Assembly (NCBI GenBank): GCA_002269645.1
Contig: NIVC01004247.1
Coordinates: 1 to 53,372, forward strand
Source: Macrostomum lignano
Lineage: Eukaryota
Direction: 5' to 3'
DNA length: 53,372 nt
Below, in pieces: positions 1,966 to 44,643 of this stretch. Position numbers and translations under genes: made by a program. Below the pieces are notes generated by a model that made no database searches, was not told the origin of the DNA, and saw only the letters and a list, made by a program, of their open reading frames with translations. Every line of letters starts with the position of its first letter. Position 1 is the first letter of the stretch.

Positions 1966-2056
1966 AGTAGTATACGTTTTTTGACACAAAGCCGATTTCC
2001 TTATGGCGAAATACATAGTAAGTACAGGCCCAAAAAAATGGCAGAGTCCGAAATTT
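1966..2056 (+). repeat. Left terminal inverted repeat of the Polinton (91 bp)
   Basis: Reverse complement of 16597-16688, apart from one substitution and one homopolymer indel (T6 vs A7). Confidence 0.97.
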
Positions 2057-2113
2057 CATGTGCACGCAGTCTGAAATTCCATGTGCACGCAGTCTGAAAT
2101 TCCAAGTGCACGC
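2045..2113 (+). repeat. Three tandem 23-bp subterminal repeats (AGTCYGAAATTYCAWGTGCACGC)
   Basis: Units at 2045, 2068 and 2091; only one related copy lies at the right end. Confidence 0.9.
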
Positions 2114-2525
2114 TAAATATCTTTTACGCAACGTGATTATTCAGACGAATTGCATATCCACCTGTCCAAAATACAAGTAACCGATTCTAGCAATGGTGAC
2201 ACAAACACACTTCAAAGGATTCCATTCAAGACAAATTTACTCCAAAGCTATTCACACATTTCAAGTGTTTTTGAAATATTGAAAACTTGTGAATATTATC
2301 ACCCTTTTGAAGAAAGATAGTAAATGATCTATTCTTGAGTGCCTATAGAATTTTTGCACCAACTTGAGCAGATGGTTTACAGATACTATGTCAACAACTG
2401 CGTCAACATGCTTTTTCTTTATACTATATATATATATACGAACACACTGACACAGAAAATATTAAATAACTTAAACCAAGTTTACATTATACTACTTGTT
2501 CAACTATACTTACATCTTAAGTGAA

Positions 2526-3473
2526 ATGAAGCGATCACGTCAGCAGGAATTGGCCGAGCGCTATGTTAAACAAGGTAAGATAATCACCTACTCTAGTTCA
2601 GTTTTCTTTTTTAGATTGACTGTTCGCTATAGTTTAGTTTCTAGATTGATTGTTAGTTCGGTTTCTGTTTAGACCGATCCTCTGTTTGTTCAGTCTCTAG
2701 ATTGATTTTTGCTAGTTCGGTTTCTGTTTAGACTAATACTCTGCTAGTTCAGAATTTCTAGATTGATTGTCTGCTAGTTCGGTTTCTGTTTAGACTGATT
2801 CTCTGCTAGTTCAGTTTCTATATACATTGTATACATGCACCTATACCAAATTTCCCTCATCTTATCCATTATTATAGCATTCAAGAATGGTTTCTTCACG
2901 CGGCCACCTCCAGATCAGTGCAAACGCATTTGCCACGACACCACCACATCCAATTCTGCTGCAAGAGCATCATATTCTACATCTCTCGCCAGAGTAACCT
3001 CGATTCATGTCGAGAGACAGACAACTGAGCTAGATCGCATTTACACAAGAACTGATGTTATTCAGTCAATTAGGCAGCAATCGAACCCACGACCAACTGA
3101 CCAACTGCAGTATGCACCACCACCACCATCACCAACCAGCTACAATGACCCAACAAAGCAAACTTGCAGTAAGCCTACAAGTACCAAACCAACGACAGCA
3201 ACTGAAACACCATCATCATCAATTGCTATTTCTACCCAAGTTCAACCGCTGCTAAACTCGCCAATTATTGTACAGAAGGACATCAAGTCTGTAAAAGTCT
3301 CTCAAATGAGCACAGGCTTCTACCAAGTAGAATTACAAAGACCTGTAATACAACTCAAGTATTTGAATATTGGGACCTATCTTAAAAAGACATTTTTTCT
3401 AACTCTTCATAAAATTTTGCCAGCAATGTGTCCAAGTAATTGCTCTTTTAGTATATATCAAACAAGTCTGTAA
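2526..3473 (+). CDS. Spliced viral orphan protein, 214 aa (exons 2526-2574 and 2878-3473), P/S/T-rich
   Basis: ATG-MKRSRQQELAERYVKQ, donor AG|GTAAG at 2575, acceptor TTATAG at 2877; the phase-1 join is in frame with the long ORF ending at 3473. No homology recognised. Confidence 0.55.
2592..2820 (+). repeat. Alternating ~30-bp minisatellite inside the viral intron
   Basis: Repeated GCTAGTTCGGTTTCTGTTTAGAC and GCTAGTTCAG..TCTAGATTGATT units. Confidence 0.8.
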
Positions 3474-3639
3474 TCAATAATATAATCTCTATAAATTCAT
3501 TATTCTAAAAAATTCTTTCAATTTTATTCGCCATTCATATTGAAATTATTTAATTCAATATAAAGTCAATATCTTGTACAGTCATCATTAAACAAAAATT
3601 ATTAATCCATGCAAATAATTTTTTTTCATACGTTTCTTT

Positions 3640-4330
3640 AGCCATGGTCTGGCTTTTGCCTCAACAGTATGATTTAGCTGTGGTCCAGCTTTTGCCTCAA
3701 CAGTATGATTTAGCTGTGGTCCAGCTTTTGCCTCAACAGTTTTTAGCCGTGGTCCGGCTTTTTTGCCTCAGCAGTATGATTTAGCTGTGGTCTAGCTTAA
3801 AACTGCATCAACAGTGATTTAGCTATAGTCCAGGCTTAACTACCTCAACGATGATTTAGCTATAGTCAAGGCTTAACTGTCTCAACAGTAATTTTAGCTG
3901 TTGTCCAGACTTAACTGCCTCAACAGTGATTTTAGCTGTGGTCCAGGCAACTGTCTCAACAGGGATTTAGCTGTAGTCCGATTAGCTTAACTGTCCAGTT
4001 ATTTAGCTGTGAGCCAAGCAGCAGCACCCGTCTCAACAGTGAGAATTAGCTATGGTCAGCTTTACCTCAACTGTGATTTGGCTGCTGTGGTCTAGCATAA
4101 CTGACTCAACAGTAATTTTAGCTGTAGTCGTCCAGCTTAACCACCCGTCCAGTTTTATAACCATGGTCCAGCTTAACCACCGTCTCAACGTACAGCGATT
4201 TAGTCGTGGTCCAGCTTAACCGTCTCAACGTACAGTGATTTAGCCATGGGTCTAGTAGCAATTAACCGTATCAATAGTGATTTAGCCGTGGTCCAGCTTA
4301 ACTGTCTCAACACAGTAATTTAGCTTAGTC
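3640..4330. repeat. Degenerate ~36-40-bp tandem array (about 18 copies) inside the virus
   Basis: Consensus near AGCTGTGGTCCAGCTTAACTGTCTCAACAGTGATTT; the first copies are near-identical and later ones carry indels. Confidence 0.9.
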
Positions 4331-5035
4331 CAAACAGCATTTGTGTGTCAACTGCACTGACTGCATGCGGTTATAGCAGCGGCAGTCATTATAGTCCCAA
4401 CAAGCTGCGCGTCGCAGCATGATAGTGTAACTCTATATAGCTTCTGCTCAATATAGGACTGCAAAAGCTGAGTTACAACTATACCTTTTTCTGTTTGAAA
4501 AGTAACACTCTATATATAGGTTACTCAAGCAATCTCTTGTCACCGTGCGAGCTAAAAAATTCCAACATGCAAGCAAAACTTTCAATAAATTAATTTCATA
4601 GCACCGCGTGCAGCTTATTTTTACTCTAAAATCCAAGATTGCTAATTTTTCAAGTCGCAAAATATTTTAATTACATTCTACTTGAGAACAAAACCAATCT
4701 AATGAAGCAGCAACCAGCAGTCTTCTTATTAAACGCTTGCCATCGTGTTACTCTTGCAAATTTATAACTAGTGTGCCTAAGATTCATTAATTTTATTGTA
4801 TAAAATATCAACCTACATTTGCGTAAAATTAGACCTAATCATGCAACCCACCCTAGAAACTTATGCCACCTTTGGCACGCAACAATGTCTTAATCAGCAC
4901 GCAACAATTAAATTTGTTTACTAGTTCACAAACAGCATGCAAAGCTTGCTATAAATACAAGACCCGAAATGGTCAATTTTTCATGAGCTCAATCATTACA
5001 GCAAAAGAAATACTATATTCAATTGCTTGTAAGAC

Positions 5036-6234
5036 ATGGCAGCTTGCATCAAGACGGAGTCAATTGTACGCTCCGACTCGAGTCCGATTTTTTACGTTGG
5101 AGAGCAGTCTACAACCACGACTGGTTCGTCCTGCCAGTTTCGATCTATTGCGTGGAAACCATCAATCGAGTGTACAAAATGGTACCCAATTATATTGCAA
5201 ACCAAGGCTCCAATGGAGCTTTTTCGTGGAATCGCAGAAAGGCCAGAGCTCGATCATCCGTCTTGCAGACACGACTCTCGCGACGCAGTAAGTGTCCAAT
5301 TTCATCCAGACAGCTGCGATAAGGAACTCTTCCACTCTCTCCGGTGAGCACCATATTAAATTTATACAATTAATTTTAGGAAACTATATTCATAATTTAT
5401 ATAATGTTTTGCAGTCAAGTCGAAAAAGGTCTATCGGTCAAGTTGAACGAGATTCAAGATGCTCGACCCTTGGCACGACTAACAAAACCAGCTCATCAGC
5501 ATGCTAACGACGTCCTCGAGTTTGTGCCTCAACAATGGCTGGCTATAAAGCCTGCTTACCCTTGTGCCACAATCAGGATCAGCAACGATCATCCACACGG
5601 GAAGGAGGTGTCCATTTCCGATTTCAAAGGTGTCAGCGGTACCTACCAAATGACAGTGCAAGCAACGAGCTTGTATTGTCCAAAAGGCTGCCTCGTCTGG
5701 CGCATTACATTCGCTGTGCGCTCTCTGACACTCATAGAATCTTCCGACAACATGTTGCAGCGCCTCGACATGTTCAAGGGAGTGCTTGCACACCTACCCG
5801 CGACCAAGTCAGCAATTAGAAGCAGGAGTCCGTCCCCAACATCTACCTGTGAGCAAGAAGAAGCAAATGAACAAAGCCTGCAGAATTCAAGCCAGGTGAC
5901 ACCTGCCAAGTCACCTGCAAAGCGTCGGTCTACCACCACCGTATCGAAGAAGTCGACTACATCGAATGCAGCGCCAGCCTCTATTGAACCGCCGCCTAAA
6001 AAGCAAGTTCGAAAACGCAGCGGTGCAAAACAGCAAAACAATTCTGCCGAAGCTGGTGCAGATGGCACAGACTGGGTGGAGGCTCCACCAGCAAAGATCT
6101 TGGTGAGTACACCTGCCTCTGGAACCAGGGTAGCGTCCAAGGAGACAGCATTTTTAAAGCGTGCTGCTGCGGACGCTACTACAGCTAGCGTGTCTTCATC
6201 GGACGACTCGTACAGCAGCTCTGATGATGAGTAA
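5036..6234 (+). CDS. Spliced probable OB-fold ssDNA-binding protein, 375 aa (exons 5036-5343 and 5415-6234)
   Basis: Intron 5344-5414 (GTGAG...TTTTGCAG) joins two ORFs in frame. The pattern PIILQT..PM..FRGI...AVSVQF....KELFHSLRQVE...GTYQMTVQATSLY resembles T7 gp2.5-like/NCLDV SSBs, with an acidic C-terminus (SSSDDSYSSSDDE). TATAAAT at 4950. Confidence 0.6.
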
Positions 6235-6443
6235 CAAAATTTTTGACTAATTTTATCCAAGTTTTAACTAACTTATTCCACTATATTTATCAAATTTTTG
6301 GCTAGGGAAATATTATTTTTTAGGGAAAGCTCAAAACATTTTTTGCTACTCCTTGTACGCTAACCAGGTTTTGTAATTTAATATTAGAATTTACGATAGT
6401 ATAGTCATGTTTAACTTTTCTTATTATTTATTTTCCGTTTTAG

Positions 6444-7000
6444 CGACTTGTCCTATTAATAGTTACTGCGAGTCTGAAGCTGCACCCGTTTGAAAAATTT
6501 GATTTAAAGCAGACCAAACAGAAGCTACAGACCAGAAACCGGTTTTGCAAACTATTCCTAAGCCGACCAACAATGCTAAAGACAATTTATTCAAATGCTA
6601 AAATCCAACTTTATCCAGCAGGAAAACTAACTATATATGGCTGTAAATCAAATTCTCAGATAGTCTCAGTTTTACGATTTATCAACGACACTATTAATTG
6701 TGTAGATTTTGATTCAGTAAAAATTCAGAGCAGTACCTATGTCGCTTTATTGGTCATCTTTGGCCAAAATTCGGTTTCTCTAGTCTAAAAAGATATGCAG
6801 GCTACTATTCGAATTATCTGGTTGGATACGATGCAGAAAATTTCCCACAAGCAGTTTCTGTTAGATCAGCATCAAAACCAAGGCTTTTTTGTAACATATT
6901 TTTTTCGAAAAAGTTTGTTATTATGGGCGTTCAAAACACTCATGAATTGAATAATATTCTTAACCATGTCAAGGATTTTTTAATCTCTGTTAATAACTAA
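6444..7000 (+). CDS. TATA-binding protein (TBP)-like ORF, ~185 aa, with one homopolymer frameshift at 6746-6748; start unresolved
   Basis: Repeat 1: LIVTASLKL..FDLKQ...AKIQLYPAGKLTIYGCKS (TBP: NIVSTVNL..LDLKT...TALIFSSGKMVCTGAKS). After adding one T, repeat 2: KIQSS...YDAENFPQ...KPRLFCNIFFSKKFVIMGVQ (TBP: KIQNM...YEPELFPG...[20 protein letters not shown]). Length matches the TBP core. Preceded by an acceptor-like TTTTAG at 6443. Confidence 0.72.
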
Positions 7001-7214
7001 ACTTAACAAGTAAACAATTGCTGTCAAATCGCAGTTGCGATGCATTCTTTTACAAACATTTTGTCTTTTTTTATTTATTTACCAATTGTTTTCTCTAATA
7101 GTAAACGTGTCAGCTATACCTATAACTAACCAAATCATCATTTTTCTTACAGCCGCAAATGACAAACCGGATCATCTATTAATATTATGCTCGATACGCT
7201 CGTTGTCGAGCTAG

Positions 7215-8297
7215 GTGCACACAATGCCGCGTGCACAATGCCAAATCTGCAGAAAAAAGTTCAGTAATCAAGCCGAGCTGCATGCTCACTCGCATGGTGC
7301 TTGTTTTTCACCGCAACGATTACTGACCGGATCGCTGCAAAACCTGATCGAAAACCCACCAGATGGGTGGTCCATCGCTTTGCGCGAGTCAGCTCATCGT
7401 GGTCGGGTAAATTTTGTCGAATTTACTCCCACTCTTGAACAACAAGGCAACAGCTCTGGCGAGTTACTTCCTGGCGAGTTGATTGCGTCTTTAAGAGAAC
7501 CAATATTTAAAATATTGGAAAAAATTGGCTCACCCAGTTTATTAATAAGAGTCTGCTTTCACTTGAAAGTGACACTATTTCGACCGAAAACAGCAGCAGA
7601 CGACAACGATGGCTCGAGCAGCGAAGAGATCATTTCGGTCTATTTTAATACCAACATTGCGACAATATCATTTGATGAGACGATTAAACAGTGACATGCT
7701 GTTATCTCCCGAGGCCTACAATGACTGGTTCGCACGCGTTATTAATCAGTTGTTAATAAAAATTGACAATTTTCAATCTCGAGGTAGTAATTGGCAATAT
7801 AGAGCAATCGAGCAGCTAGACTTGATGCTCTGCGTTTATCGCAAAAGCCATGCAAGCACACTGTCAACAAATACGTCCCACGGTGGTGTGGGGGCGGGCG
7901 GCGGCAGTGGTGGTGGTGGCGGCGGTGGTGGTGGTGGTGGTGGCGGCGGCGGCGGCGGCGGCGGGGGCGGCGGGAGTCCGGTCCAGTCCGGTCCGGTCCA
8001 GTCCGGTCCGGTCTGGTTAAGCAGCAATCGTTTAAAGTTCCAGTCTCAATCGGTCGCAAAGCTGGAGCAGTACTGCTTCTAAAGCCGCACAGAGCAGTTT
8101 AAAGCATCAAGACTATTTAAGAGTCTTACACAAGCGACAACTTGTGTTTTCGCGCATACAGTCCATTCGTTCTCGAAAACAGAAAGTTTTTTTTGATGCA
8201 ACAAAGAAAACTTGCACTAAGCTTCTTCGATACGAAGCGATCCTGGACAAGTTCAATTAATTCGCTACCCTTTGGACACTGGCACTTGGCTAATTAA
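7215..8297 (+). pseudogene. Protein-primed DNA polymerase B remnant: N-terminal region and extreme C-terminus kept, catalytic core absent
   Basis: N-part has a C2H2-like CQICRKKF...LHAHSH and FQSRGSNWQYRAIEQLDLMLCVY, matching the Polinton pPolB N-region F..RGSGW....I..L.L...Y. C-part (8096-8297, one indel near 8205) reads LKHQDYLRVL...IRSRKQ...LSFFDTKR....INSLPFGHW, matching LTHEDY...IRS....LSPFDDKR....TLPYGH. No exonuclease or palm motifs lie between them. Confidence 0.8.
7881..8016 (+). repeat. (GGY)n microsatellite followed by CCGGT/CCAGT pentamers at the polymerase deletion junction
   Basis: Directly visible; reads as poly-Gly in frame with the polymerase N-stub. Confidence 0.95.
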
Positions 8298-8589
8298 TTA
8301 ACAATATGCTCTGATCTCTTTTGTTGTACAAAGTAATAGCATGCTATAGAAGACTGTAACCCATCATTAATTTTTTCATTGATCATTATTTACAATAAAT
8401 AAATGATACCGGCATTCGTTTAAATTATAATTTTAGCACTTTTTTGTGTTTAATTATTTGAAAAAGTATATTTTTTATAGTTAGATTCTCAAGACTAAGC
8501 TTGTGTTTGTAGTAGACGTAAATGTAGTGCTATCGTTCATGTTTCAAGAAAAAAAACTTTTTTTTAAACTTTCAGCTACAAGAATCGAC

Positions 8590-9072
8590 ATGAATCCCGA
8601 GCAGCAGCAGCAACAACAACTAACTGATCGTAAGCTTTTAGTTGAACGTCTATACGATTCGGCAACGATTCCGACCCGAAAAACTGTCGGGTCGATCGGG
8701 TATGATCTTTGCGCTGGCGTCGATGGTACCATTCCGGCCTACGAGTCCCGGAGTGTGCGAACCGGACTCAAAATTCGCTTACCGCCTGGTACCTATGGCA
8801 GGATAGCGGGACGTTCCAGCATGGCTCTGCACAGCTTATTTGTTGGCGGTGGCGTAATCGACCCCGACTATACTGGTGAAATCTGTATAGTCTTGTTTAA
8901 TTACAGTCCGGAAGACTTTGAGTACTATGCCGGGCTCAGTATTGCACAACTGGTTCTGGAGCAGGCCGTGCTTGCTTCAGTCTATGTGACTGAAGCAGAC
9001 AATTCGATTCGGATGATTGAGCCGCCGACCAAGCGGCGCGGCTTTGGCGGCTTTGGCAGCACTGGCCAATAA
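8590..9072 (+). CDS. dut: Viral trimeric dUTPase, 160 aa
   Basis: All five motifs are present: IGYDL, GRSS, GVIDPDYTGE, IAQL, RGFGGFGSTG. ATG at 8590. Confidence 0.95.
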   Translation: MNPEQQQQQQLTDRKLLVERLYDSATIPTRKTVGSIGYDLCAGVDGTIPAYESRSVRTGLKIRLPPGTYGRIAGRSSMALHSLFVGGGVIDPDYTGEICIVLFNYSPEDFEYYAGLSIAQLVLEQAVLASVYVTEADNSIRMIEPPTKRRGFGGFGSTGQ

Positions 9073-9163
9073 GTATAATAATAATAATAAACTGATTTTT
9101 TTCTTTGGTGATTGGTGCACTATGCGAGAGCTTTGTAAATACTATAAGCAATTTTAAAAATTT

Positions 9164-9607
9164 ATGCCTAAAATATATGTTGTAAAAATGTCTCCAGCGA
9201 AAGATCGAGGTTTTAAAAAGAAAAAGAAGAGCATTCGTAAAAAGAAGAAATCTATTAGAAAGATTAATAAAAAGCAACAAGGTTATGGTGTCGTAAATTG
9301 GTTAATTAATCATTTACCATTTGAAGCACATTTACCCGGCGGATATCAGTTTTGTGGTCCAGGTACGCAACTGCAAGCTAGGCTAGCAAAAGGACAACGA
9401 GGAATTAATCGGCTTGACAATTTGTGCATGCTTCACGACGTGGCCTATGATAAAAATTCTGACGTGCAAGAGAGGTTAAAAGCTGATAAGCTATTAGAAT
9501 CTGGTGCACGAGAGATTGCCCACGATCCGTCTACTGGTTGGAAAGAAAAACTAGCTGCGAAGTTGGTTACCAAGGTTATGCAAGTTAAGCAACGCTTTGG
9601 TGCTTGA
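9164..9607 (+). CDS. Parvovirus-type phospholipase A2-domain virion protein (PLA2X-like) with Lys-rich N-terminus
   Basis: HLPGGYQFCGPGT (Ca-loop) and HDVAYD (catalytic HD), as in parvoviral VP1u and adintovirus PLA2 proteins. Confidence 0.9.
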   Translation: MPKIYVVKMSPAKDRGFKKKKKSIRKKKKSIRKINKKQQGYGVVNWLINHLPFEAHLPGGYQFCGPGTQLQARLAKGQRGINRLDNLCMLHDVAYDKNSDVQERLKADKLLESGAREIAHDPSTGWKEKLAAKLVTKVMQVKQRFGA

Positions 9608-9609
9608 AA

Positions 9610-10299
9610 ATGCAGCAGCCATACAATATGCAACTAGCTCACGATTCTACATTTATTATTGCTGGACCTTCAAACTCGGGTAAAACTGAATGGACGTTGC
9701 GTTTGTTGACTGAACGAAAAGAATTATTTGATAAAAAACCGTGCCGTCTTGTTTGGTGCCATGGATCAAGTTTGAAACCAGACGATCAACAACGAATTAG
9801 AACATGCTGGCAAAAAAGCGGTCTTGACCCTATTGTTTTTGTACCCGAATTCACACCACAGATGATTAATCGTTTTTTACCACACGATTTGGTTGTTGTT
9901 GACGACTTGCAAAGCGAGATTGCTAAGTTGCCAGAATTTACTAGTATGTTTACAAAGCATGCGCATCATATCCCTTTGACTTGTCTGTACCTTTGTCAAG
10001 GTCTTTTTAACAAGTCTGATCCAGAAGCACGCATGCGAAGTTTATCAGCTAGTTATATTTGTCTAACTCGTAGTGTGCGCGATCGAACCACAGTTGAACA
10101 TCTCGGTCGACAAATGTATCCGCGTAATAGTAGGTTTCTAGTGAATGTGTATGAAGACGCAACAAATAACAAACCTTTTTCATATTTATTCATTGACCTG
10201 CGGCAAGTGACACCAGATTTTTTACGATTGAGAACAGGAATATTTTCTGGTGATGAACAAGTTGTCTATACTCGTGAATGTGATGCAAAGTTTGTGTAA
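9610..10299 (+). CDS. A32/FtsK-type genome-packaging ATPase
   Basis: Walker A IIAGPSNSGKT, Walker B LVVVDD, and downstream HH..I...YLCQ and R..SLSASY motifs typical of Polinton ATPases. Confidence 0.93.
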   Translation: MQQPYNMQLAHDSTFIIAGPSNSGKTEWTLRLLTERKELFDKKPCRLVWCHGSSLKPDDQQRIRTCWQKSGLDPIVFVPEFTPQMINRFLPHDLVVVDDLQSEIAKLPEFTSMFTKHAHHIPLTCLYLCQGLFNKSDPEARMRSLSASYICLTRSVRDRTTVEHLGRQMYPRNSRFLVNVYEDATNNKPFSYLFIDLRQVTPDFLRLRTGIFSGDEQVVYTRECDAKFV

Positions 10300-10356
10300 T
10301 ATTATTATAAGCAAATTATAAACTGTTGTCAATATTAGTTTGTGTTTTATTTCAAA

Positions 10357-11346
10357 ATGAGTTTTTACGTTTTTTTGCCGTCAAACGATATCAGTTACGA
10401 AACCAACTCGCCTAATGAATTTCGAGTGCGACTAACTGAACCAATAAATTTATTGAACGGATTCTTCGAGGTTGCACTAGTTGAATTACTGTGCCATGGA
10501 GCAATTACGACGCCAAATGCTCATCGTGAGCGTCGATTTGAAGTTCCATATTTTGCGGACATTGACTCAATAATACGATTAAAGAAAAACTATTGGGGTC
10601 GTGTTTGGGCAGAGGCAGACTTGGATGCTTACGTTTCCTGGCAACCGTCTGGTACAGATGAAAAATTTGCCTGGCTTTTACGAAATTCAGGCGAAAAAAC
10701 TATTGGATTAGAACTACCAGTTACATTTATGGACGCTTTCAAATTTGACTCTTGGAAGAAACTTTCTGGACTTGTCTCGGAAAAATTATCAAAACCTGCC
10801 GCTGGTAGTGTACAACCACCGGATGGTTCATACTTGGATTTGATAAAAAGTCTCGACAATACTCTAGCGCTAGTACCTGAGAACTATTATGTTTTTTATT
10901 GTGTTCTATCGCCTGGTGAAGCTATACGACTTGTTTCGCATGGAGACTATCTTCGAAAAACGGAAGGAGAAGTGTACATCAAAGTACACCAATATTGGTT
11001 GAGAAATCGTGTTTGGCGCATTAACAAAACCTACTTGGATGCTGTGCTACCTTCTCCGATGCCTAGTAAAACGGTTTACATGTACTGTTACACAGATATA
11101 ATCGAGTATCAAGCAGTGGGAAGTACATCAGTACCGTTGCTTCGAGTTGTGGAACTCCAACAAAAGAAAAACGGAGAACTTATACGCGATAGCAGTGCAT
11201 TGCAAACACCCTACTACTTGAAAACAAATCGACAACAAATTCACGAGATTTCGATTCGACTATCGGACCAGCGCGGAAAACCGTTTAATTTTGATCCGGG
11301 AGCACACGTTGTTGTCGTACTGCATTTTAAACATAGGTCGGACTAA
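10357..11346 (+). CDS. Minor capsid protein (penton)
   Basis: N-terminal FYVFLPSN...N....FRVRL..PI.L...FEVALVEL and C-terminal YCYTDII....VG....PLLRVV...Y....I.I.L.DQ.G..F.F. Confidence 0.88.
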   Translation: MSFYVFLPSNDISYETNSPNEFRVRLTEPINLLNGFFEVALVELLCHGAITTPNAHRERRFEVPYFADIDSIIRLKKNYWGRVWAEADLDAYVSWQPSGTDEKFAWLLRNSGEKTIGLELPVTFMDAFKFDSWKKLSGLVSEKLSKPAAGSVQPPDGSYLDLIKSLDNTLALVPENYYVFYCVLSPGEAIRLVSHGDYLRKTEGEVYIKVHQYWLRNRVWRINKTYLDAVLPSPMPSKTVYMYCYTDIIEYQAVGSTSVPLLRVVELQQKKNGELIRDSSALQTPYYLKTNRQQIHEISIRLSDQRGKPFNFDPGAHVVVVLHFKHRSD

Positions 11347-11402
11347 TTTATAAGCAAAGATTAATTGTGTAATAGAAAATTTTGTGAATTTGTTTTGTAA
11401 GA

Positions 11403-11831
11403 ATGAGCGAACTAACAGAAAAAGGAAAACAAAATGCTCGCTCATTGTGTCAGTGTGCTTTTTTACTACAAATTGTTTATCGGCTAAAGCATCCAAAGCA
11501 GAGAAAAAGTTTTTTACAAACACTTTCAGAGTCGGAGATACGATGTCTAGTAGACTTTCTGTTTAATATTATTAGTGGACGTATTAAAATTAGTAACTGT
11601 AACAAAAGACGACTTGAGAAGCATCGCAGATATATACGCCAGCTTTTGGAACAGAAGACTCCAATTACTGCAAAAAGGAAAATACTTGTCCAGCACGGAG
11701 GATTTTTACCTTTTTTGGCTCCAATTATTGCTGCTCTACCTGCTATAAGCACTGCGCTTGGGATAACGTCTGGAGTAGTTGGTACCGCCGCGGGAGCAGC
11801 GAATTTAATACGATCAATTCAACGAAAGTAG
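11403..11831 (+). CDS. pX-like basic virion protein with C-terminal hydrophobic peptide
   Basis: Basic helical N-part, then LVQHGGFLPFLAPIIAALPAI, similar to the adenovirus pX precursor tail (GG-ILPLLIPLIAAAI). Confidence 0.75.
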   Translation: MSELTEKGKQNARSLCQCAFLLQIVYRLKHPKQRKSFLQTLSESEIRCLVDFLFNIISGRIKISNCNKRRLEKHRRYIRQLLEQKTPITAKRKILVQHGGFLPFLAPIIAALPAISTALGITSGVVGTAAGAANLIRSIQRK

Positions 11832-11841
11832 TAGGAATATA

Positions 11842-12531
11842 ATGCGAACTAACGAGAGTAGTAGTTTTCAACGAATGTATCTAGTACCTGAATCTGTGTA
11901 TCAATCTGCATGTCAAGGTGCAGAGCAAGGATCGTCACCAACTGCTGAGACACCTCGAAAAACTGAAGTTTTAGACGCACCGCAAGATGCTCTGGCAAAA
12001 AATATGGTGGAAATGAGAGACCAAATGGATAACTTGGACAAGGAAATGGAAAAGGAGCCAAATTACACAGCTCAATTGAAACGAAGCAGATTGGAAGACA
12101 AACATTTAAAATTGCGCAAAGTCTATCGCACTGGAGACGAGGACAATCTGTCACTTGTTCGCAAAGGGACTACTGTAAGAAGTTCATATGCCAGCGAATC
12201 AAGGGAAATTCCTAAAGTTTTTTTACCACGTTTCGAAGCTCTCGCTCAAAACCTATTTTCGGACATGGACAAGAATGCAGAACCAATGCTGGCTAATTTG
12301 ACTGATGCCGAGATACAAGATCTCATGGAATATGTTGTTCGAGACAGACCGCTTAAGCGACACGAGACTCAACCGCCTAGTGGACTAAAAACATTTTTAG
12401 ACTTTCTTCGAAAACGTGGAATCGCAGCAAACCAAATCGGGCGTCATGTACGAAACGAGCTAATGTCTGCTCCAAAAACTGTTGCAAAGGAGGATCTTAG
12501 TCTGTTTGAAAATTATCAAACACTGAATTAA
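11842..12531 (+). CDS. Hypothetical Polinton protein, 229 aa
   Basis: Intact ORF tightly packed in the virion block; N-terminal RMYLVP resembles the KMxLVP start seen in Polinton proteins at this position; charged and helical. Confidence 0.75.
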   Translation: MRTNESSSFQRMYLVPESVYQSACQGAEQGSSPTAETPRKTEVLDAPQDALAKNMVEMRDQMDNLDKEMEKEPNYTAQLKRSRLEDKHLKLRKVYRTGDEDNLSLVRKGTTVRSSYASESREIPKVFLPRFEALAQNLFSDMDKNAEPMLANLTDAEIQDLMEYVVRDRPLKRHETQPPSGLKTFLDFLRKRGIAANQIGRHVRNELMSAPKTVAKEDLSLFENYQTLN

Positions 12532-12643
12532 GTTGTTTTAAAATTACAGATTACGTTTTAACAAAATTGATTCGAGCACTATAAGCTTTTTAAAAAGGTT
12601 AATTTTTTGTTTATGAAAAATATATAGTTTAATAAGACAAACC

Positions 12644-12832
12644 ATGTCATCTATCTTCCAAAAACTTTTGATTCGTCTCTGTGAGTTTTTTTGCATAAAA
12701 TCTGAATGTGTGCCGTTTCTGGGAAAGGAGCACAACGAGGATACTGACGGAGATTCGATCGAGGCTTCGTTCTTTTGTTGCAACTGTCAAACGACTAGCA
12801 TCAATCTAACTGATGATGAAGCGAGTGCGTAA
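12644..12832 (+). CDS. Small Cys-rich hypothetical protein, 62 aa
   Basis: ATG lies 64 nt after a TATAAGC motif; the stop overlaps the integrase start. Confidence 0.45.
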   Translation: MSSIFQKLLIRLCEFFCIKSECVPFLGKEHNEDTDGDSIEASFFCCNCQTTSINLTDDEASA

Positions 12833-13973
12833 GGAAATTGAAGAATTTTTGACGGATGCTTTTTTTAACTTGAACAGGCCTACTTCATTTAGTGGTAACA
12901 AGACTATACTTGTTCGTGAAGTACGTAAAAAGTTTCCACAGATTACGAACAAAGTTGCAAAGCGCGAAGTTGATAATTGGGTGCGATCAACAAATGAGCA
13001 TCATTTATTTCGAAAAACACGACGAAACTTTCCAACTCCAAAAATTAGTGTGCCACCAGTTGCAAAGTTTCAGTTTCAAATCGATTTGGCAGATTTACCT
13101 CAATACAAGACGGAAAATCGAGGTTATCGTTACATACTTGTTCTTATCGACTGTTTTACTAGAGTTGTACGACTAAGACCATTGCGTACAAAGAAGCCTT
13201 CAGAAGTTAGTCAAGTATTACTAGAGATTTTTCGAAGTGGTTTTAAGCCTGTTTATTTACAAGGTGATGCTGGTATGGAGTTTCTCGGAAGAGCTACACG
13301 TCAAATGCTGAAACAGGAAGGAGTTCGATTTTTTGTTAGCCAAAGCAATTACAAGGCAAGCATGGCTGAACGATTTATCCGCTCGTTAAAGGAACGTCTA
13401 TTACGATACTTTCGAGCAAAAAATTTACCTCGATGGTTTGACATTTTACCGCAATTGGAAGATAATTTCAACTCTAGTCCTCATCGATCCTTGAGTGGAG
13501 AAACACCAAAACGGGTAGAGACAGACCCGCATTTACAAGGAATTTTGTGGGACAAAATGTTTGCGAAGTCGTACACTAAAAAGAATGAGAATAAATTTAA
13601 AGTTGGTGATTGGGTTAGAATTACACGACGTCGAGGAACATTTGAAAAAGGATACACTACGACTTGGAGTAATTCAAAATATCGCATTCATCGTGTACAC
13701 TTGACAGACCCGCCAATGTACGAATTAGTGGACCCTGAAGATGGATTTGAAGTGCTGAAAGGAAGGTTTAACCAAGCGGAACTAATGTTGGTAAACGAGA
13801 CAGATGAAACACCTAATGAAATTGAAAAAGTTATTGAAACTGATCGAGCGAAAAATGGAAGTCGTCTGTATCTAGTAAAATGGAAAGGTATGCCAATCTC
13901 AAGAAGTCAGTGGTTAAACGAAAATGATCTTGACGCAAAGACTGCTAAACTATTTTCTAAAGTGTATAAGTAA
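12813..13973 (+). CDS. Retroviral-like DDE integrase with C-terminal chromodomain
   Basis: FQIDLADL...YRYILVLIDCFTR, LQGDAGMEF and KASMAERFIRSLK (D,D,E); chromodomain EIEKVI.......YLVKWKG......W. Confidence 0.96.
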   Translation: MMKRVRKEIEEFLTDAFFNLNRPTSFSGNKTILVREVRKKFPQITNKVAKREVDNWVRSTNEHHLFRKTRRNFPTPKISVPPVAKFQFQIDLADLPQYKTENRGYRYILVLIDCFTRVVRLRPLRTKKPSEVSQVLLEIFRSGFKPVYLQGDAGMEFLGRATRQMLKQEGVRFFVSQSNYKASMAERFIRSLKERLLRYFRAKNLPRWFDILPQLEDNFNSSPHRSLSGETPKRVETDPHLQGILWDKMFAKSYTKKNENKFKVGDWVRITRRRGTFEKGYTTTWSNSKYRIHRVHLTDPPMYELVDPEDGFEVLKGRFNQAELMLVNETDETPNEIEKVIETDRAKNGSRLYLVKWKGMPISRSQWLNENDLDAKTAKLFSKVYK

Positions 13974-14014
13974 CACATGAATTGGGATTGCATGACGAAG
14001 AGAAGACTGTTGAA

Positions 14015-14472
14015 ATGGATCCTATTTTTGCTTTTTATTCTGGTCCGAATAGATCTGCTGAAGGTGGAGGTGGATATGGCATTCCTGTTTACGAAGGTTA
14101 CGTTTTTTGTCAAATTTGGCGGACAGATTGGTGTATCCTGTACTACGCAACGCAAAGAAAGATTTCTTGGATCGTGGTCTGGAGTATTTGAAAAGTGCGA
14201 CAGCAAAAATTGGTATGGGTCGGAAGCGTCACTTGGACACAGAATCGAGCGAAGAGATGTTTAATACAACTGCAGTTTCGAGACCAAAGCGAAGGAAAAG
14301 AACCAGTGGAGTGGCTATAAGCTTAGGAAAGAAGAAACGGCAAAAGAAACGACGAACAAGACAGTGTGGAAAGGGACGCGTGAACAAAAGAAAACGCAAG
14401 AAGACCGGTGGTATAGGAAAACGTCGAACTGCTACTGCAAGCAAGAAACTTTTTAGTCTGTTTGAAAAGTAG
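14015..14472 (+). CDS. Basic core (pVII-like) protein with one frameshift in a T-run at 14103-14108
   Basis: MDPIFAFY...GGGGYGIPVYEGY joins FLSNLADRLVYP...RKRH...KKKRQKKRRTRQ if one T is added. The D..YY....GG...VY.G start and Arg/Lys-rich tail fit Polinton core proteins. Confidence 0.65.
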
Positions 14473-14473
14473 C

Positions 14474-15796
14474 ATGAACCATTTGCTTGGACCTGATATT
14501 GCTGCTCTTAAAAGTGAATTGTCGCTATTTGATCAAAGTCCTGTTCAGTTTAGTGTTTTGGATAATCGATATACTAACATTCAACCGCAACATGGTATTA
14601 CAAAAGGATCACCTATCGAATTTGAAGTTGTGCCTGCAGGCGATTTGTATTTGGATCTACAAGAAACTGTGCTCACGGTATGCTTCAGCGTTAGTGATAG
14701 TGAAGGTGAACCTATAGATGCAACGAAAAATTTTGTTTGTTTGAATAATTTGGTTATTGGAACATTGTTTGAGGACGTTCAATTTACTATTGGCGATACT
14801 GTAGTTGAAGGTGGTAGTTTTATGTATCCATACAAGGCTATGCTTCTTACATTACTGGAATATGGACATACAGCTCAGAAGGCTGGTTTACTGCCGTGGG
14901 GGTTTTACAAGGATACAGCTGGTAAAATGAATGCAACAAGTGAAAACGATGGACGAACAAAGAGGCAGGCGCTCATTGCTAACAATAGGCGGTGCACTGT
15001 ATCGGGGCCGTTATTCTTGGATTTGTTTCGTCAGCCTCGGTATCTACTATCAAAGACACCACTACGGATCAAGCTCATACCGGCAAAAAGTAAATTTGTC
15101 CTGAGCGGGTCAACATTAGAAGCTGGTGCGGTTTTAAAAGACTATGAGATCAAGTTTTTGCGTGCAGAACTACGATTGCGGTTTGTTCAACCCTCGCCGA
15201 GTGTTATCAGTGCACATGCTCATGGACTTAAAAGTCACAATGCATTATATCCGCACCGAAGTCTAAGCCTTGGTACGTTTACTATACCCCGAGGATCGTC
15301 TAGCCATACGCATGAAAATTTGTTTCCTAGTGGGGTACCACGGCTTTTATTGATGGCAATTGTAAGCAACAAGGCATTCAATGGAAGCATGGACACAAAT
15401 CCGTTCAACTTTGAGCATGCAAATGTGAGCAGCATTGGTGTGTTTGTGAATGGAGACTCGGTACCATCGCGTCCGCTGCAGACAAACTTTGGAGATGATT
15501 GTGTGACAGAGTATAATTTTTTGCTACAACAGCTTGGAATCTATCTACAGGGACGAGATATTGGATTTAATATGCTGGATTACGCCAATGGTTACTCAAT
15601 TTTTGCATTCAGTCTTGGAAGTGAACCTGGTGTCGGACGGGGAGTGCAACTGTATAAGGAAGGAAATGTAAAACTAGAGTTACGCTTCAATGCTGCAACT
15701 AGTACCGTGTACAACGTCATATTTGGAGGTATATTTGACAAGCAACTGCAACTGACTGAACTTCGCGACATTGTTCCTGGCACAGTATGGAAGTAA
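14474..15796 (+). CDS. Major capsid protein (double jelly-roll hexon), 440 aa
   Basis: KSELSLFDQSPVQ...PIEF.V......YLDLQET, GPLFLDLFRQPRYL, FNGS...NPFNFEH, and GY.IFAF.L; intact ORF. Confidence 0.93.
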   Translation: MNHLLGPDIAALKSELSLFDQSPVQFSVLDNRYTNIQPQHGITKGSPIEFEVVPAGDLYLDLQETVLTVCFSVSDSEGEPIDATKNFVCLNNLVIGTLFEDVQFTIGDTVVEGGSFMYPYKAMLLTLLEYGHTAQKAGLLPWGFYKDTAGKMNATSENDGRTKRQALIANNRRCTVSGPLFLDLFRQPRYLLSKTPLRIKLIPAKSKFVLSGSTLEAGAVLKDYEIKFLRAELRLRFVQPSPSVISAHAHGLKSHNALYPHRSLSLGTFTIPRGSSSHTHENLFPSGVPRLLLMAIVSNKAFNGSMDTNPFNFEHANVSSIGVFVNGDSVPSRPLQTNFGDDCVTEYNFLLQQLGIYLQGRDIGFNMLDYANGYSIFAFSLGSEPGVGRGVQLYKEGNVKLELRFNAATSTVYNVIFGGIFDKQLQLTELRDIVPGTVWK

Positions 15797-16350
15797 TTGA
15801 TTCTATCCTAGATCGTGGTGTAACAGATCGCTTCCTTCGCAATGTTGTATCGAAATTGTGCGCACATTTTTTAAATGTTGTATTTCTTGGTGTTTTTCCT
15901 CAAAACTTTGTTGGTGGACTTAGACGCTTACCTTTAGACGGTAAAGACTATTTTTTTATCGTTAATACTGACGTCTCCAACCTGCCCGGAAAACATTGGG
16001 TATGCGTTTGGGTTTATGGTCATCGAGCAGGTCGCGGTAGCAAACGACTTGGTGAATATTTTGATTCTCTTGGTCTAGTACCATTGCCAAGAATAGCAAA
16101 ATGGCTAGGAAAAGAATGTGGAAATTCGAAAAATTGGTGTTATAGTCGCTTTGCTATCCAAGACCCACAGAGTGGAAGTTGTGGATTTTGGGTAATTTTT
16201 TATATTTTTCATAAGTTGACTACCAGAGGAAACCTAGAGTGTTTTATTCGAAGCGTTTTTAAACGGAATATAATTCGCACTGGTTCGTTTCGATACTTGT
16301 ATGCTAAATTACGCAATTTTGTTTTACGAGTGCTGCCTCAATATTTGTAA
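15787..16350 (+). CDS. Adenain-family cysteine protease
   Basis: FLGVFP...IVNTD.S..PGKHWV...EYFDSLG...IQD..SGSCG.W (catalytic His, Asp, Gln, Cys). Confidence 0.93.
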   Translation: MEVIDSILDRGVTDRFLRNVVSKLCAHFLNVVFLGVFPQNFVGGLRRLPLDGKDYFFIVNTDVSNLPGKHWVCVWVYGHRAGRGSKRLGEYFDSLGLVPLPRIAKWLGKECGNSKNWCYSRFAIQDPQSGSCGFWVIFYIFHKLTTRGNLECFIRSVFKRNIIRTGSFRYLYAKLRNFVLRVLPQYL

Positions 16351-16596
16351 ACTCGCTAATTTGTGCGTCAAATTGTGTTTGTATCTAGTTGAAATATACA
16401 ATACTGCTTGAAAAGAAGAATTTAAATGCGTTAAGTTATACGCAAAATAAGCTTTGTGTCAAATTGAATTTTGGTTGGGCTTGTAATTAGCTGCATTCAT
16501 TGCGGATAGAATTTAGGTGGATAGACAGGTGTTTGCGTAAAAGTGATTCAGCTAATTGGTTAATTCATTGCGTAAAAGCTAGTTTGCGTGCACGGC

Positions 16597-16688
16597 AAAT
16601 TTCAGACTCTGCCATTTTTTTGGGCCTGTACTTACTATGTATTTCGCCATAAGGAAATCGGCTTTGTGTCAAAAAAACGTATACTACT
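16597..16688 (-). repeat. Right terminal inverted repeat of the Polinton (92 bp)
   Basis: Matches 1966-2056; weaker similarity extends inward to about 16569 (GTGCACGC and TGCGTAAAAG motifs). Confidence 0.97.
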
Positions 16689-34846: not shown

Positions 34847-37800
34847 TTAAAATTTTGAACTAAAACTTCTTAGCAACAGGCAGAGAAGCAGGCCAACAGC
34901 AGCCAAGCTGTGTACAGCTAGCAGCAACCTGTTGGCATGGCGACCAATCACAGACGACTTCAATCTGTTTATTGCTGGCAGCTGCGAGGCCAGGGTTGAC
35001 AAGTCGGACTCGAAAGCCAAGCAGGCCGTCACCACCAGGAGAAAAGCGTTGGCACCCATGGTCAGGTGGCACAGCTGACTGGATGGTCGGTGGTCACCGG
35101 TGAAGGCCTGAGATGGGAGAGGGACAGTGACGTCATAGATGGAAGATGAGATATTTCGATAAGGTTCTATTGAAAGCGACTCAACAGGGGCTTTTTAGAA
35201 ACTGAGTTTTTTGTGGACATTCTTAGAAATCAGTAGACCTATGATAATTCTTAGAAATCAGTAGACCTATAATGATTCTCTAAATGAAAGTAGGATATAT
35301 TTTCCTAGAAACAGATTTACCAGAAAGCTAATCGTGTTTATTAGAACACATATTTTAAAGTTATTAATTGATTTAAAAGATCGGATTTTTGGTTAAATTT
35401 ATTAGAAAATCAGGTCAGAAACCACTCACCAAATTAGAGTAGCAGGTAACCACAAAAGCTCCAATCATCACCAGACGAACTTGCCGACACGGCAGCAGCC
35501 AACGAACAACTCCATCAACATCATCTTTCCCTCGAACGTATCTGCCGGCAAACACCAGACTAGAAGCAGCCCTCAATCCAATGTTAACGCAGTTAGCCAG
35601 CACAAAACCTGCGCAAGCTAATTCCTCTCCAACGCCAAACAGAGCCGGGCCAATTCGACGTATTGCGGTGGTGGCAGCCACCGCGGTAGCTAAGAAGGCT
35701 ACGGAATACCCGACCAGTCTGCGGTTGTGCGAGTCCACCTGAGAGTATGTGCGTATGCGGTTGCTAGCTGTTGCTCTTATCAATAGTCTATGGCCCAAAC
35801 CTAGGGTGCATTAGCGCTGTCTGTTATATTGAGCTACCGCATCGCCCACCACACTGCTAAGCCAATTAAGAGTCAATTTGAGGCGTTTTTTGTCTGCGAC
35901 TCTAAAACGACTCTGGGGCCGTAGAGTCGTATTTGAGGCGTGCTGGAGTCGCTGTAGAATCACTGAGTTGCCTCTAAAGCGCATCTGCATCAATTTATGA
36001 CAACGGTCGGTAAACTCCGGCGCGCGAGCCACATGCGGCCCGTAAAGCTTCTCTATCTGGCCTGCTCAAGGTATCTTCTCAACTCTCTTACCTCCTTTTT
36101 CCCCTCTTCTCTCCTTTCTCCTCTCTCATCTTATCTTCACCAATTTTATCTCTCCTCTCCTCTCTTGCCCTCCCTCTTTTCTCTCGTCTCACATCTGCTC
36201 TTCTCTCTCTCTGATGTATTCCCTCTCCTCTGCTGTTTCATCTGGCCCTTGAGGTAAGAAAGATTGCCGATCCCTGCTTTAGGAATAAGAAGCGCGTTTC
36301 GCAGTTACGCCCGTATAACAACTCTATTTAGTCTACTTGAGTCGTTAAAAAGTCACAAGATTCACATCATGCAGAGTTGCTAGAGTTACTAGCGACTGTT
36401 TTGAAATGACTCTTTAGCGATTCTTGTCACTTCAATGGGAAGAAGTTTTTGGGCCTTCAGCAATATAAAAATACGCTAAAGCCAAGTAACGCACCTCAAC
36501 TCGGGACATTGTAGCAAACATGAATGCCTCAGAAACGCCATTCCAAGCCAACAGCAGCACGTAGCAACTAAACAACCGAAGCAAATTCGGGCCCTCGCCT
36601 TCGCTCAAAGTGGCGCCGCTGTACAAATGAAGCAGCTGAGTGGAATAGGGCACGGAGAACAGAGCTACCGACCAGCCAATCAGGGACACTAATCTTAGCG
36701 CGCCACGCAAGTAGATCCCAGCCAGCGTGACCCGGTCCGGGTCCTGCTGCTCCGGCGATTGACCTCGACGCAGCGACTTGCCAAAGAAATGATAGGCGCC
36801 CTCTTCGACAGGCTGCAATAAAATTATTTGATGGTGTTGGCGCTGCTGATAGTCAGACAGTCACTGCCGAAAATCAAGGCGACAGGCAAGAAGACTCGCA
36901 TCTTGCATTTTTAAAGAAGCTGTCACAAATTCCCTAACAATTTCGCTTTAGATTTTGGAATCGATGAATTGTTTCAATATGTTAAATATTGAATGTGAAA
37001 ACTCAATACGCCGTCGTGACCTCTCCTCTCTCTCTCTCTTTCCTCATTAGATACGAGCGTCTCTCCCTCTCCCTCTCTTTCTCATTCTCTCCCTCTCCCC
37101 ATCTCAATCTCTCTCTCCTCTCTCCCTTGTTCTCTCTCTATCTCTCCCTCTCCCCGATCTCAATCTCTCATCTCTCAATCTCTCTCCTCTCTCCCTTGCT
37201 CTCTCTCTCTCCCTCTCTCTGATCTTAATCTCTCTCCTCTCTCCCTTGTTCTCTCTCTATCTCTCCCTCTCCCCGATCTCAATCTCTCGTCTCTCAATCT
37301 CTCTCTCCTCTCTCCTTTGTTCTCTCTCTATCTCTCCCTCTCCCCGATCTCAATCTCTCGTCTCTCAATCTCTCTCCTCTCTCCCTATCTCTCCCTCTCC
37401 CCGATCTCAATCTCTCGTTTCTCAATCTCTCGTATCTCAATCTCTCTCTCCTCTCTCCTTTGTTCTCTTTCTCTCTCCCTCTCCCCGATCTCAATCTCTC
37501 GTCTCTCCCTTCGCTCGCACACCCTGTACCAGTGGCTAACTGTATCTGTGGCCAACTTATTTTATTGTCAGGAAAATGCACGACACGGCAGATTCTTCAC
37601 TCAACGGTCAATGGCCAGCAGCTTAAACTCTCACCTGAAACAGCAGTCGTGCAGCCAAGGACCCCAAATTGGACACACTATCCAGTAGTCCTTGCTCGGC
37701 CAGACTTAACAAATTAGTAAACGTCAACACGTACTTTTCACCCTCTGTTAGCAACTGTTTCACCGCGCATTGGCCTAGAAAAGATCGCACTAACGCCGTC

Positions 37801-38597
37801 TGAGCCGGGTCCAACGGTTCCGAGTTCGAATCCAGCGAAGCCGTTTCAATCGAAGACGCCGAACCAACCGTGAGTGCCGATCTGGCAAAATGCCAAGGCA
37901 AACGGAGCAGATTAGGCGACACAAGAGGCACCCCAAGCAAGCCGGCAAGACGTCTCTCTCCGCCCTCGGCACCCGGCCGAATCATCCTTCGAGCGCCTGC
38001 CCACATCACCGCCAGCAACACGCAGCCATAGATCAGCTGACCAACAGAATAGACCCTGATTGACCAATCCGGCGAGTGGGACAATGTCACGCCTACGCCG
38101 ACAAAGACGCACCTGGCTAACTGAGCCCAGCCCTCAGCAGCTACGCGTCTACCCATCACCAAGTGAATCTGTAACAGAATCTGTAACGGCTCTGTTAACA
38201 GTTCGACCATAGCTGACCCGGCGTACAGACACACTTCCATAGTTGGCAGAGACAAAGACCACAGCGGGATCAAGACTACAGACCAGGCTAAACCGAACCA
38301 AGGTGCCAGCCAGAGTAAATCTATCAACGAGCGCAATTGACTTTGAGTACTTGGAGCGCTGACGCAGGCCTTGCGAAACGGTTCCCTGGCAAAGAATGTC
38401 ACAGTGGAATACAGCAATGTCAGCTGAGCCGCCTGGCCCAGTACCGACTTGGTCACGTGACGCAATACCCATGCATTCAAAATGAAGGTTGACAATCGGA
38501 ATAAGGCATTCAGCGCGGCATTAAACACGGTGTGCTGCAGGGCTGAACTGAACAAGTTGCTGGTAGGGGAGGAGGCTGCAAACTCGGCTGGCTTCAT
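34847..38597 (-). CDS. RFT1: RFT1 (Man5GlcNAc2-PP-dolichol translocation protein), 616 aa, exons 37635-38597, 36495-36812, 35430-35738, 34847-35107
   Basis: LFRLSTFILNAWVLR...LTLLYST..F.AREPFRKAC, KQLLTEGEKYV, NLGSLAARLLFQPVEE, LLLAWNGVSEAF, GFVLANCVNIGLR; all introns GT-AG, phase 0. Confidence 0.93.
37020..37510. repeat. Pyrimidine-rich (CT) low-complexity repeat in RFT1 intron 1
   Basis: Direct reading. Confidence 0.9.
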
Positions 38598-38747
38598 CTT
38601 GCGCTTGCTTGGTGCAACTGTATTTAGTTACAGTAATAATAGCAGTGCTTTTGACAATTGAACTGTTCTCAATTGCATCATGAAATAGATTAATGAGTTC
38701 ATTGTCTTTCAATTACAATGCTTTTTTGGCCGACAAGCTTGAGGATC

Positions 38748-44300: not shown

Positions 44301-44643
44301 CAAACATGCGAAACATCCACCAGACCCTTGGCGCAAACATGCAATTATCGTAGACAATAACATGGCTATCATTGCCGATACCCAGGCGTTTGCCAACGTA
44401 CTCGGCAAACTGAGCAGAGCTGGGCAAAGTGTTTGAGAAGCCAGTTTCTCTGGCGCTGCATTCTGGCACGCTGAAATGTCTGGCACCGGGAATTCTTGGC
44501 GCCGCGGCGAATGAGGTTTCCACTGGGGCCGGGTAGCCGCCGGCATCAAGTATTCGAATTTTGTTATTAGCGGCATTGGATAGTCTGCTGGCCAGCCATG
44601 AACTGCTGACCAGAGCTGGGGTGACCGCCTGTCTGGCTGCCAT
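41348..44643 (-). CDS. MPST: 3-mercaptopyruvate sulfurtransferase-like tandem rhodanese, exons 44113-44643 and 41348-41710
   Basis: LVSSSWL...RIPGARHF...APRVWWMFRMFGHEAVSVLDGGLAAW; exon 2 DARSPARFRGEEPEPR, active-site loop CGSGITAC (MPST-type CGSGVT rather than TST CRKGVT), and VYDGSW.E. Confidence 0.88.
41826..43960. repeat. ~2.1-kb mixed 24/27-bp minisatellite filling the MPST intron
   Basis: Units CTATCCCGTGTCTATCTACCATCT and CCCCTTCTATCGTGTGTCTATCTACCAT. Confidence 0.97.

Follow-up and report, generated by a model that had tools for sequence, protein, structure and literature searches.

Eight copies of the word TATAAG, six of them reading TATAAGC, lie on the plus strand in the right arm of a Polinton/Maverick integrated in the genome of Macrostomum lignano (NCBI GenBank assembly GCA_002269645.1, contig NIVC01004247.1, positions 1 to 53,372; this whole stretch of 53,372 nucleotides is referred to as the window). 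Taken as a whole, the set of copies is a real, local feature. As judged from the sequence, the word is likely a variant of the TATA box rather than an initiator of the baculovirus type. The left arm of the same element contains a gene for a protein resembling the TATA-binding protein (TBP), which the original prediction, made from the letters of the window, had overlooked. The reading that we favour, at slightly better than even confidence, is that this element-encoded protein would read TATAAG(C) and bring host RNA polymerase II (Pol II) to the late genes.

Recurrence of TATAAG(C) upstream of right-arm genes

The right arm (8539-16350) is a block of genes on the same strand, in the order dUTPase, PLA2-like, ATPase, minor capsid, pX-like, 229-aa open reading frame (ORF), 62-aa ORF, integrase, core, major capsid and protease (Table 1). 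Enrichment was assessed over the span 8500-16400 against 3000 shuffles in which synonymous codons were permuted and spacers were dinucleotide-shuffled. TATAAG lies at most 170 nt from 8 of the 11 right-arm starts compared with 1.15 expected (0 of 3000 shuffles), in agreement with the original prediction that it recurs before most structural genes; the positions and strand of the eight copies, the six instances of TATAAGC and a GATAAGC at 9485 were likewise confirmed. The prediction had put the expected number of TATAAGC at roughly one, which is too high, the expectation being 0.17 with codon-matched and 0.40 with dinucleotide shuffling against 6 seen (0 of 3000 in each case). The arm holds eight copies of TATAAG on the coding strand (2.6 expected, p = 0.002) and one on the opposite strand, and the best hexamer of any kind never matched the observed score in 400 shuffles. 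The signal is local, as TATAAG is not enriched across the whole window (25 versus 34 expected).

The word-to-start distances are 45 (counted to the PLA2-like gene's second in-frame ATG), 50, 51, 54, 64, 98, 134 and 158 nt. The distances quoted originally hold when taken to the gene start, but as distances to the next ATG they fail for the copies at 12580 (+33), 13965 (+12) and 15653 (+13) and for the GATAAGC at 9485 (+93). This last word, proposed to serve the ATPase gene, is indeed present, but among the many words of the arm with a single mismatch it is indistinguishable from chance. Individually, 9485, 13965 and 15653 may be chance occurrences.

Four copies (11744, 13965, 14316 and 15653), rather than the three first reported, are embedded in upstream reading frames. 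Two features provide supporting hints for these embedded copies. The spelling of Tyr-Lys differs along the genes, with four mid-gene pairs written TAC AAG and two near gene ends written TAT AAG, at an overall TAT:TAC ratio of 52:31. The Tyr-Lys pair that spells the 15653 copy is kept in four of four capsids at 47-68% identity and in 1 of 104 other covered capsids. Diverged sister contigs from three sequencing runs start matching at 15653, for which a protein motif at that place could account. All six Tyr-Lys pairs (12813-15796) use AAG, though AAA is the commoner Lys codon (106 versus 68).

Canonical TATA boxes in distant Polinton relatives

The comparison comprised 81 distant Polinton loci (including the best 80 of 222 matches) whose capsids are 27-36% identical to that of the studied element. 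As 46 loci fall into one of the 25 clusters formed at 70% capsid identity, counts were weighted or taken from one locus per cluster. Close relatives with DNA context were found in none of the viral contigs, prokaryote genomes and phage records searched.

The top upstream hexamer of the relatives' capsid-block genes is the canonical TATAAA (0.31 of upstream segments versus 0.08 mid-gene). TATA words located at most 200 nt from a start number 57; the interval of 39-54 nt contains 16 of them and that of 80-100 nt another 17, whereas only 2 are nearer than 39 nt. Such spacing is expected for a box that sits about 30 nt before the start site, according to the available part of PMC1779604. Several of these boxes are also written into upstream codons, the number of clusters far exceeding the synonymous expectation for the minor capsid (7.1 versus 0.8), major capsid (3.8 versus 0.1) and core (2.9 versus 0.4) genes. 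Counting one locus per cluster, 40 of 134 genes have a canonical box, 10 have TATAAG and 1 has TATAAGC; in the studied element, the corresponding values are 0 of 10 genes for the canonical box and 8 of 10 for TATAAG. Since the relatives carry canonical boxes at matching distances where the studied element has TATAAG, the simplest reading of the sequences would be that the same promoter slots changed their word.

Accordingly placed but differently spelled, the word shares its first five letters and its start-codon distance with the canonical boxes of related Polintons. In the available part of PMC1779604, the canonical Pol II box is TATAWAWR with an optimum at -31/-30. None of the eight copies fits this consensus, and TATAWAW is missing from the entire right arm (0 versus 4.7 expected, p = 0.009). 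The departures are G at position 6 and C at position 7, both disfavoured by cellular TBP; sequences selected in vitro by wild-type TBP lacked G at positions 6-7, as far as the available part of PMC1636458 reports.

The TBP-like protein and a candidate late switch

The TBP-like protein comprises about 185 aa in two repeats and has four intact natural homologs, P0115-P0117 among them. A word-based search with its first half retrieved nothing and a profile search retrieved only its own four members. A further candidate, P0114, was dropped as a repeat artefact. The predicted DNA-binding face is polar at L114, V122, V161 and L205, positions that are also changed in the TBP mimics of herpesviruses, and the equivalent of Glu188, the TFIIB contact, is kept in five of five TBP-like sequences. 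No TATAAG lies upstream of the TBP-like gene itself, and the left arm as a whole carries canonical boxes at 4799 and 4950 and zero TATAAG.

In the mechanism that we favour, the left-arm genes (for the TBP-like protein and a putative single-strand DNA-binding protein, SSB) would be expressed first, with host TBP acting on canonical boxes. The viral TBP would then dock on TATAAG(C), a word presumably bound poorly by host TBP, and draw TFIIB and Pol II of the host to the capsid-block genes. Transcription would start about 30 nt downstream, and the stray ATGs at +12, +13, +21 and +27 would therefore be excluded from the transcripts. In this scheme early expression would give way to late expression, every gene having a promoter of its own, and half of these promoters would be spelled by codons of the preceding gene. 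A broader proposal is more doubtful, namely that a TBP and a TATA word peculiar to a Polinton lineage (TATAAGC here) may have evolved as matched pairs, each taking over the promoter slots of an ancestral TATAAA that was read by the host. With one small protein, an integrating virus of 15 kb would thereby run a herpesvirus-style late switch, and the pairs would represent a natural orthogonal TBP-promoter code.

Several observations weigh against this mechanism. One of the four intercalating aromatics of TBP is seemingly lost or ambiguously aligned, the change of L205 to Asn sits in the repeat that reads the unchanged half of the TATA box, and the two lobes are poorly oriented in the structure model (pTM 0.51). 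No TBP was detected in the 81 relatives, among either 62 unassigned ORF representatives or 6841 six-frame peptides, an absence that counts for little, as most of these loci are partial and 19 contain PolB. The co-occurrence of the TBP-like gene with TATAAG(C) is known from one element. Relatives with no visible TBP have TATAAG(A/G) upstream of 10 of 134 genes, in most cases the core gene, and crystal structures of host TBP exist for the G(-26) variant and for the C(-25) variant, each on its own (PDB 1qn5 and 1qn3). The dearth of TATAAG in the left arm is not significant (0 versus 2.0 expected, p = 0.12). Nor are the embedded copies significant by count when taken alone (4 versus 2.1 expected, p = 0.14), so that enrichment under codon- and composition-matched shuffling survives for the whole set but not for this subset. 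Upstream ATGs would remain before the ATPase (+93) and protease (+37) genes. Finally, TAAG is avoided mid-gene (10 versus 23.6 expected), being the most depleted of 256 tetramers under plain codon shuffling and fourth of 256 when codon junctions are kept. Avoidance of near-cognate boxes would also yield such depletion; the general depletion of TAAG is explained only in part.

Alternative readings

The main rival, which we regard as unlikely, holds that host TBP/TFIID reads the word as a TATA box kept weak on purpose, which DNA replication or some other activator encoded by the element would open late, with the TBP-like protein acting as a decoy for host TFIIB, NC2 or Mot1 or binding the termini. 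It owes this rank to the crystals of host TBP on the variant boxes and to the TATAAG(A/G) of relatives with no visible TBP, found before the core gene in 0.40 of the clusters; the heavily altered face of the TBP-like protein is also in its favour. However, the in vitro selection described above speaks against recognition by wild-type TBP, and a weak host-read box leaves unexplained both why six copies share the doubly disfavoured G6-C7 and why canonical boxes are missing from the whole right arm.

A late promoter of the baculovirus or nudivirus type, for which a co-infecting large nuclear DNA virus would supply the RNA polymerase and transcription would start within TAAG, is improbable. In baculoviruses, TAAG is avoided away from promoters. 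The studied element resembles this pattern, since every copy contains ATAAG, which fits a TAAG core preceded by A, G or T, and since TAAG and ATAAG (1 versus 5.5 expected) are depleted mid-gene, the opposite strand being low as well. The depletion in the element is not attributable to avoidance of splice donors (GTAAG, 4 versus 5). Adintovirus DNA has, moreover, been co-purified from baculovirus-infected insect cells, according to the available part of PMC8502044. Thus, the likeness proposed in the original prediction stands as far as a promoter word shared by the virion block and the mid-gene avoidance of TAAG are concerned. It fails in that other (A/G/T)TAAG words are not enriched upstream of genes (6 versus 7.4 expected) and the information resides in the leading TA and trailing C, making the studied word longer and fixed on its 5' side; both lie outside the late motif, (A/T/G)TAAG, given in the available parts of PMC13483298 and PMC9786725, the former being the source for this comparison. 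Relatives that use TATAAA at the same distances are equally poor in TAAG, which is the most depleted mid-gene tetramer across the 25 clusters (185 versus 244), most strongly as GTAAG and TTAAG; avoidance of splice donors explains part of their depletion (GTAAGT, 3 versus 10-11). Starts within TAAG would place stray ATGs before the core and protease genes, and the TBP-like gene would be left unexplained. No gene for a viral polymerase of the LEF-4/LEF-8/LEF-9/P47 kind is present among the element's ORFs; on this reading a helper virus would supply it.

It is very improbable that the word is a 3'-end or RNA-processing signal of the upstream gene. Three copies are at or at most 7 nt from an upstream stop codon and the late genes of the arm are not followed by AATAAA, but three others are 86-155 nt short of the stop codon of the gene in which they are embedded, none follows the last gene, and the relatives carry TATA boxes at like distances. 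Chance in AT-rich spacers combined with amino-acid constraint, to which the lack of window-wide enrichment and the insignificance of the embedded copies alone might point, can hardly be credited and is refuted for the whole set, as neither the codon- and spacer-matched shuffles (0 of 3000) nor the best-of-all-hexamer shuffles (0 of 400) reach the observed value.

Relation to known promoter systems

The closest parallel to an element-encoded reader of TATAAG(C) is the late promoter of beta- and gammaherpesviruses, TATT(WAA), with its viral TBP mimic (KSHV ORF24, EBV BcRF1 and HCMV UL87), as described in the available parts of PMC6541308, PMC4893493 and PMC12529657, on which the following comparison rests. 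In both, an altered TATA box heads the structural genes of a DNA virus of the nucleus, and the virus encodes a protein with a TBP fold whose DNA-binding face is polar; host Pol II, probably in the present case too, is the polymerase used. In contrast to TATTWAA, the box studied here is altered in its 3' half (G6, C7), position 4 being unchanged; the herpesvirus counterpart is a domain of a large protein, whereas the TBP-like part here has about 185 aa; and Glu188 is retained in the TBP-like family, unlike in ORF24. The carrier is a Polinton, unrelated to herpesviruses. A Pfam search of the left-arm ORFs, several of which stay unassigned, gave no match to partners like ORF18, ORF30, ORF31, ORF34 or ORF66. 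The studied system would work like the herpesvirus system, yet is not a member of it, given the different word, the lack of detected partners and the retained Glu188.

The virophage mavirus shares its promoter word with its helper giant virus, CroV, whose cytoplasmic machinery is the reader. The studied element, likewise a small DNA virus that integrates, is similar in that a single short word precedes its virion genes, but differs in that it encodes its own candidate reader.

In the adintovirus paper (PMC8502044), a figure legend labels a TBP-like gene in a MELD virus map; in its available part the word 'promoter' does not occur, and neither a late box nor a link between TBP and box is described. 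The word is likewise absent from the paper on entomopoxvirus-associated PLVs (PMC11296320). A literature search, with figures, supplements and most subscription papers outside its scope, found no study of a Polinton late box, its reader or a promoter-TBP link.

Polintons encode no RNA polymerase, and the timing of capsid-gene expression and the need for a helper virus in animal Polintons are at stake. A box paired with a TBP argues for self-directed nuclear transcription. If correct, the pair would amount to the TBP-mimic strategy of herpesviruses in a minimal and independent form. It would also provide a natural TBP of altered specificity, from which the reading of the 3' half of a TATA box could be learned. 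In distant Polintons, TATA boxes occupy fixed slots, some of them within codons, and provide a promoter map for the group.

Architecture and condition of the element

The studied copy has the hallmarks of Polintons/Mavericks (adintoviruses, as presented in the available part of PMC8502044), with which it shares termini, target duplication, integrase, ATPase, capsids, protease, PLA2-like protein and pX. The terminal inverted repeats are about 100 nt long, their arms are 96% complementary, and a 6-bp target duplication is present. The retroviral-type integrase scores above the Pfam cut-off (PF00665). Major and minor capsid, packaging ATPase and protease were recognised by homolog profiles, which included proteins of the studied element itself, and by visible motifs; Pfam returned nothing for any of these four proteins. 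In the right arm, dUTPase, PLA2-like protein, pX and integrase were named by Pfam and the remainder by homolog searches, visible motifs and position; the match of a core-gene profile to the element was not significant.

Table 1 Features of the Polinton and its flanks in window coordinates.
Feature	Position	Strand	Remarks
Polinton/Maverick, single integrated copy, 14.7 kb	1966..16688		Termini AGTAGT...ACTACT; flanked on either side by CACATT, the 6-bp target duplication
Left terminal inverted repeat	1966..2068	+	Arm 1977-2068
Canonical TATA box TATAAAAT	4799..4806	+	Candidate early promoter
Canonical TATA box TATAAATA	4950..4957	+	Candidate early promoter
ORF with acidic tail, likely second exon	5404..6234	+	Weak lead: viral SSB (DUF2738 or Pox I3-like)
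Divergent two-repeat TBP-like gene	6444..6998	+	Frame broken near 6750; starts directly after splice-acceptor-like site
Likely broken N-terminal remnant, protein-primed DNA polymerase	7224..8082	+	Presumed from a motif; local PolB profile unmatched
dUTPase	8539..9072	+	Pfam; no TATAAG upstream
TATAAGC, intergenic	9143..9149	+	PLA2-like gene: first ATG 21 nt on, second in-frame ATG 45 nt on
PLA2-like virion protein	9164..9607	+	PF08398
GATAAGC within PLA2-like gene	9485..9491	+	125 nt before ATPase; membership doubtful
Packaging ATPase	9610..10299	+	Walker A and B visible; no Pfam hit
TATAAGC, intergenic	10306..10312	+	Minor capsid (penton) ATG 51 nt on
Minor capsid protein	10357..11346	+	Similar to same-block gene of relatives; no Pfam hit
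TATAAGC, intergenic	11349..11355	+	pX-like gene 54 nt on
pX-like protein	11403..11831	+	PF05829
TATAAGC embedded in pX	11744..11750	+	Codons GCT ATA AGC; 229-aa ORF 98 nt on
229-aa ORF	11842..12531	+	Usual place after pX
TATAAGC, intergenic	12580..12586	+	62-aa ORF 64 nt on; integrase 233 nt on
Integrase (rve + chromodomain)	12813..13973	+	Pfam
TATAAGT, last integrase codons	13965..13971	+	Presumed core ATG 50 nt on; other ATGs +12, +27
Presumed core protein	14015..14472	+	Position, Gly/Arg-rich make-up
TATAAGC embedded in core gene	14316..14322	+	Codons GCT ATA AGC; major capsid ATG 158 nt on
Major capsid protein	14474..15796	+	113 homologs
TATAAGG embedded in major capsid gene	15653..15659	+	Tyr394-Lys395; protease ATG 134 nt on
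Maturation protease	15787..16350	+	His and Cys motifs visible; no Pfam hit
Right terminal inverted repeat	16585..16688	-	Arm 16585-16676
Rft1 exons / rhodanese-domain gene / RNase H non-LTR retroelement	36432-38627, 44086-44706, 50763-52352	-	Grouped, in this order

Neither Pfam nor a local PolB profile matched a protein-primed DNA polymerase B in the studied copy. The ORF at 7224..8082, recognised by a motif, is presumably the N-terminal remnant of this polymerase. With no PolB match and only a likely remnant, the copy is non-autonomous, and given the broken frame of the TBP-like gene as well as the lack of a full polymerase, it would depend on sister copies. The frame of the core gene is interrupted near 14.1 kb, where contigs from all four sequencing runs compared differ from the window; the break may therefore be specific to this copy, or else an artefact of assembly.

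The scores of the putative SSB ORF (0.87-0.91) are of little value for recognition. Sites resembling splice donors at 5288, 5344 and 6103 together with an acceptor-like site before 5416 (window 5036-6234) suggest that the left-arm genes may be alternatively spliced; the weak SSB lead comes from the 5416 exon. Imperfect repeat arrays with units of 33-45 nt and about 60 nt occupy 3635-4330 and 2600-2830 of the left arm. No AATAAA follows any capsid-block gene from the ATPase onward (9610-16688); an AATAAGC is located at 16446, 96 nt past the protease stop. Contigs less than 90% alike over window positions 8100-16550 (runs X4, X9, X17 and X18) point to further diverged Polinton families in the same organism. 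The flanking DNA is intron-rich and of animal type, the Rft1 exons, rhodanese-domain gene and non-LTR retroelement with RNase H lying amid long microsatellites.

Among the relatives, most members of the cluster of L003-L069 have TATATAAG within the major capsid gene, where Tyr-Ile-Arg codons spell it 288 nt ahead of the protease start. Locus L012 (4550-5143, minus strand) and five related loci contain a Polinton ORF with a phosphatase-1-binding region (PF10488), which we take to be GADD34-like. In L048 (191-631, plus strand), an ORF of the Bcl-2 family, just under the Pfam cut-off, adjoins a Polinton ATPase. P0120, a Polinton capsid homolog (39% identity), is entered at NCBI under a bacterial metagenome-assembled genome, probably owing to a binning error.

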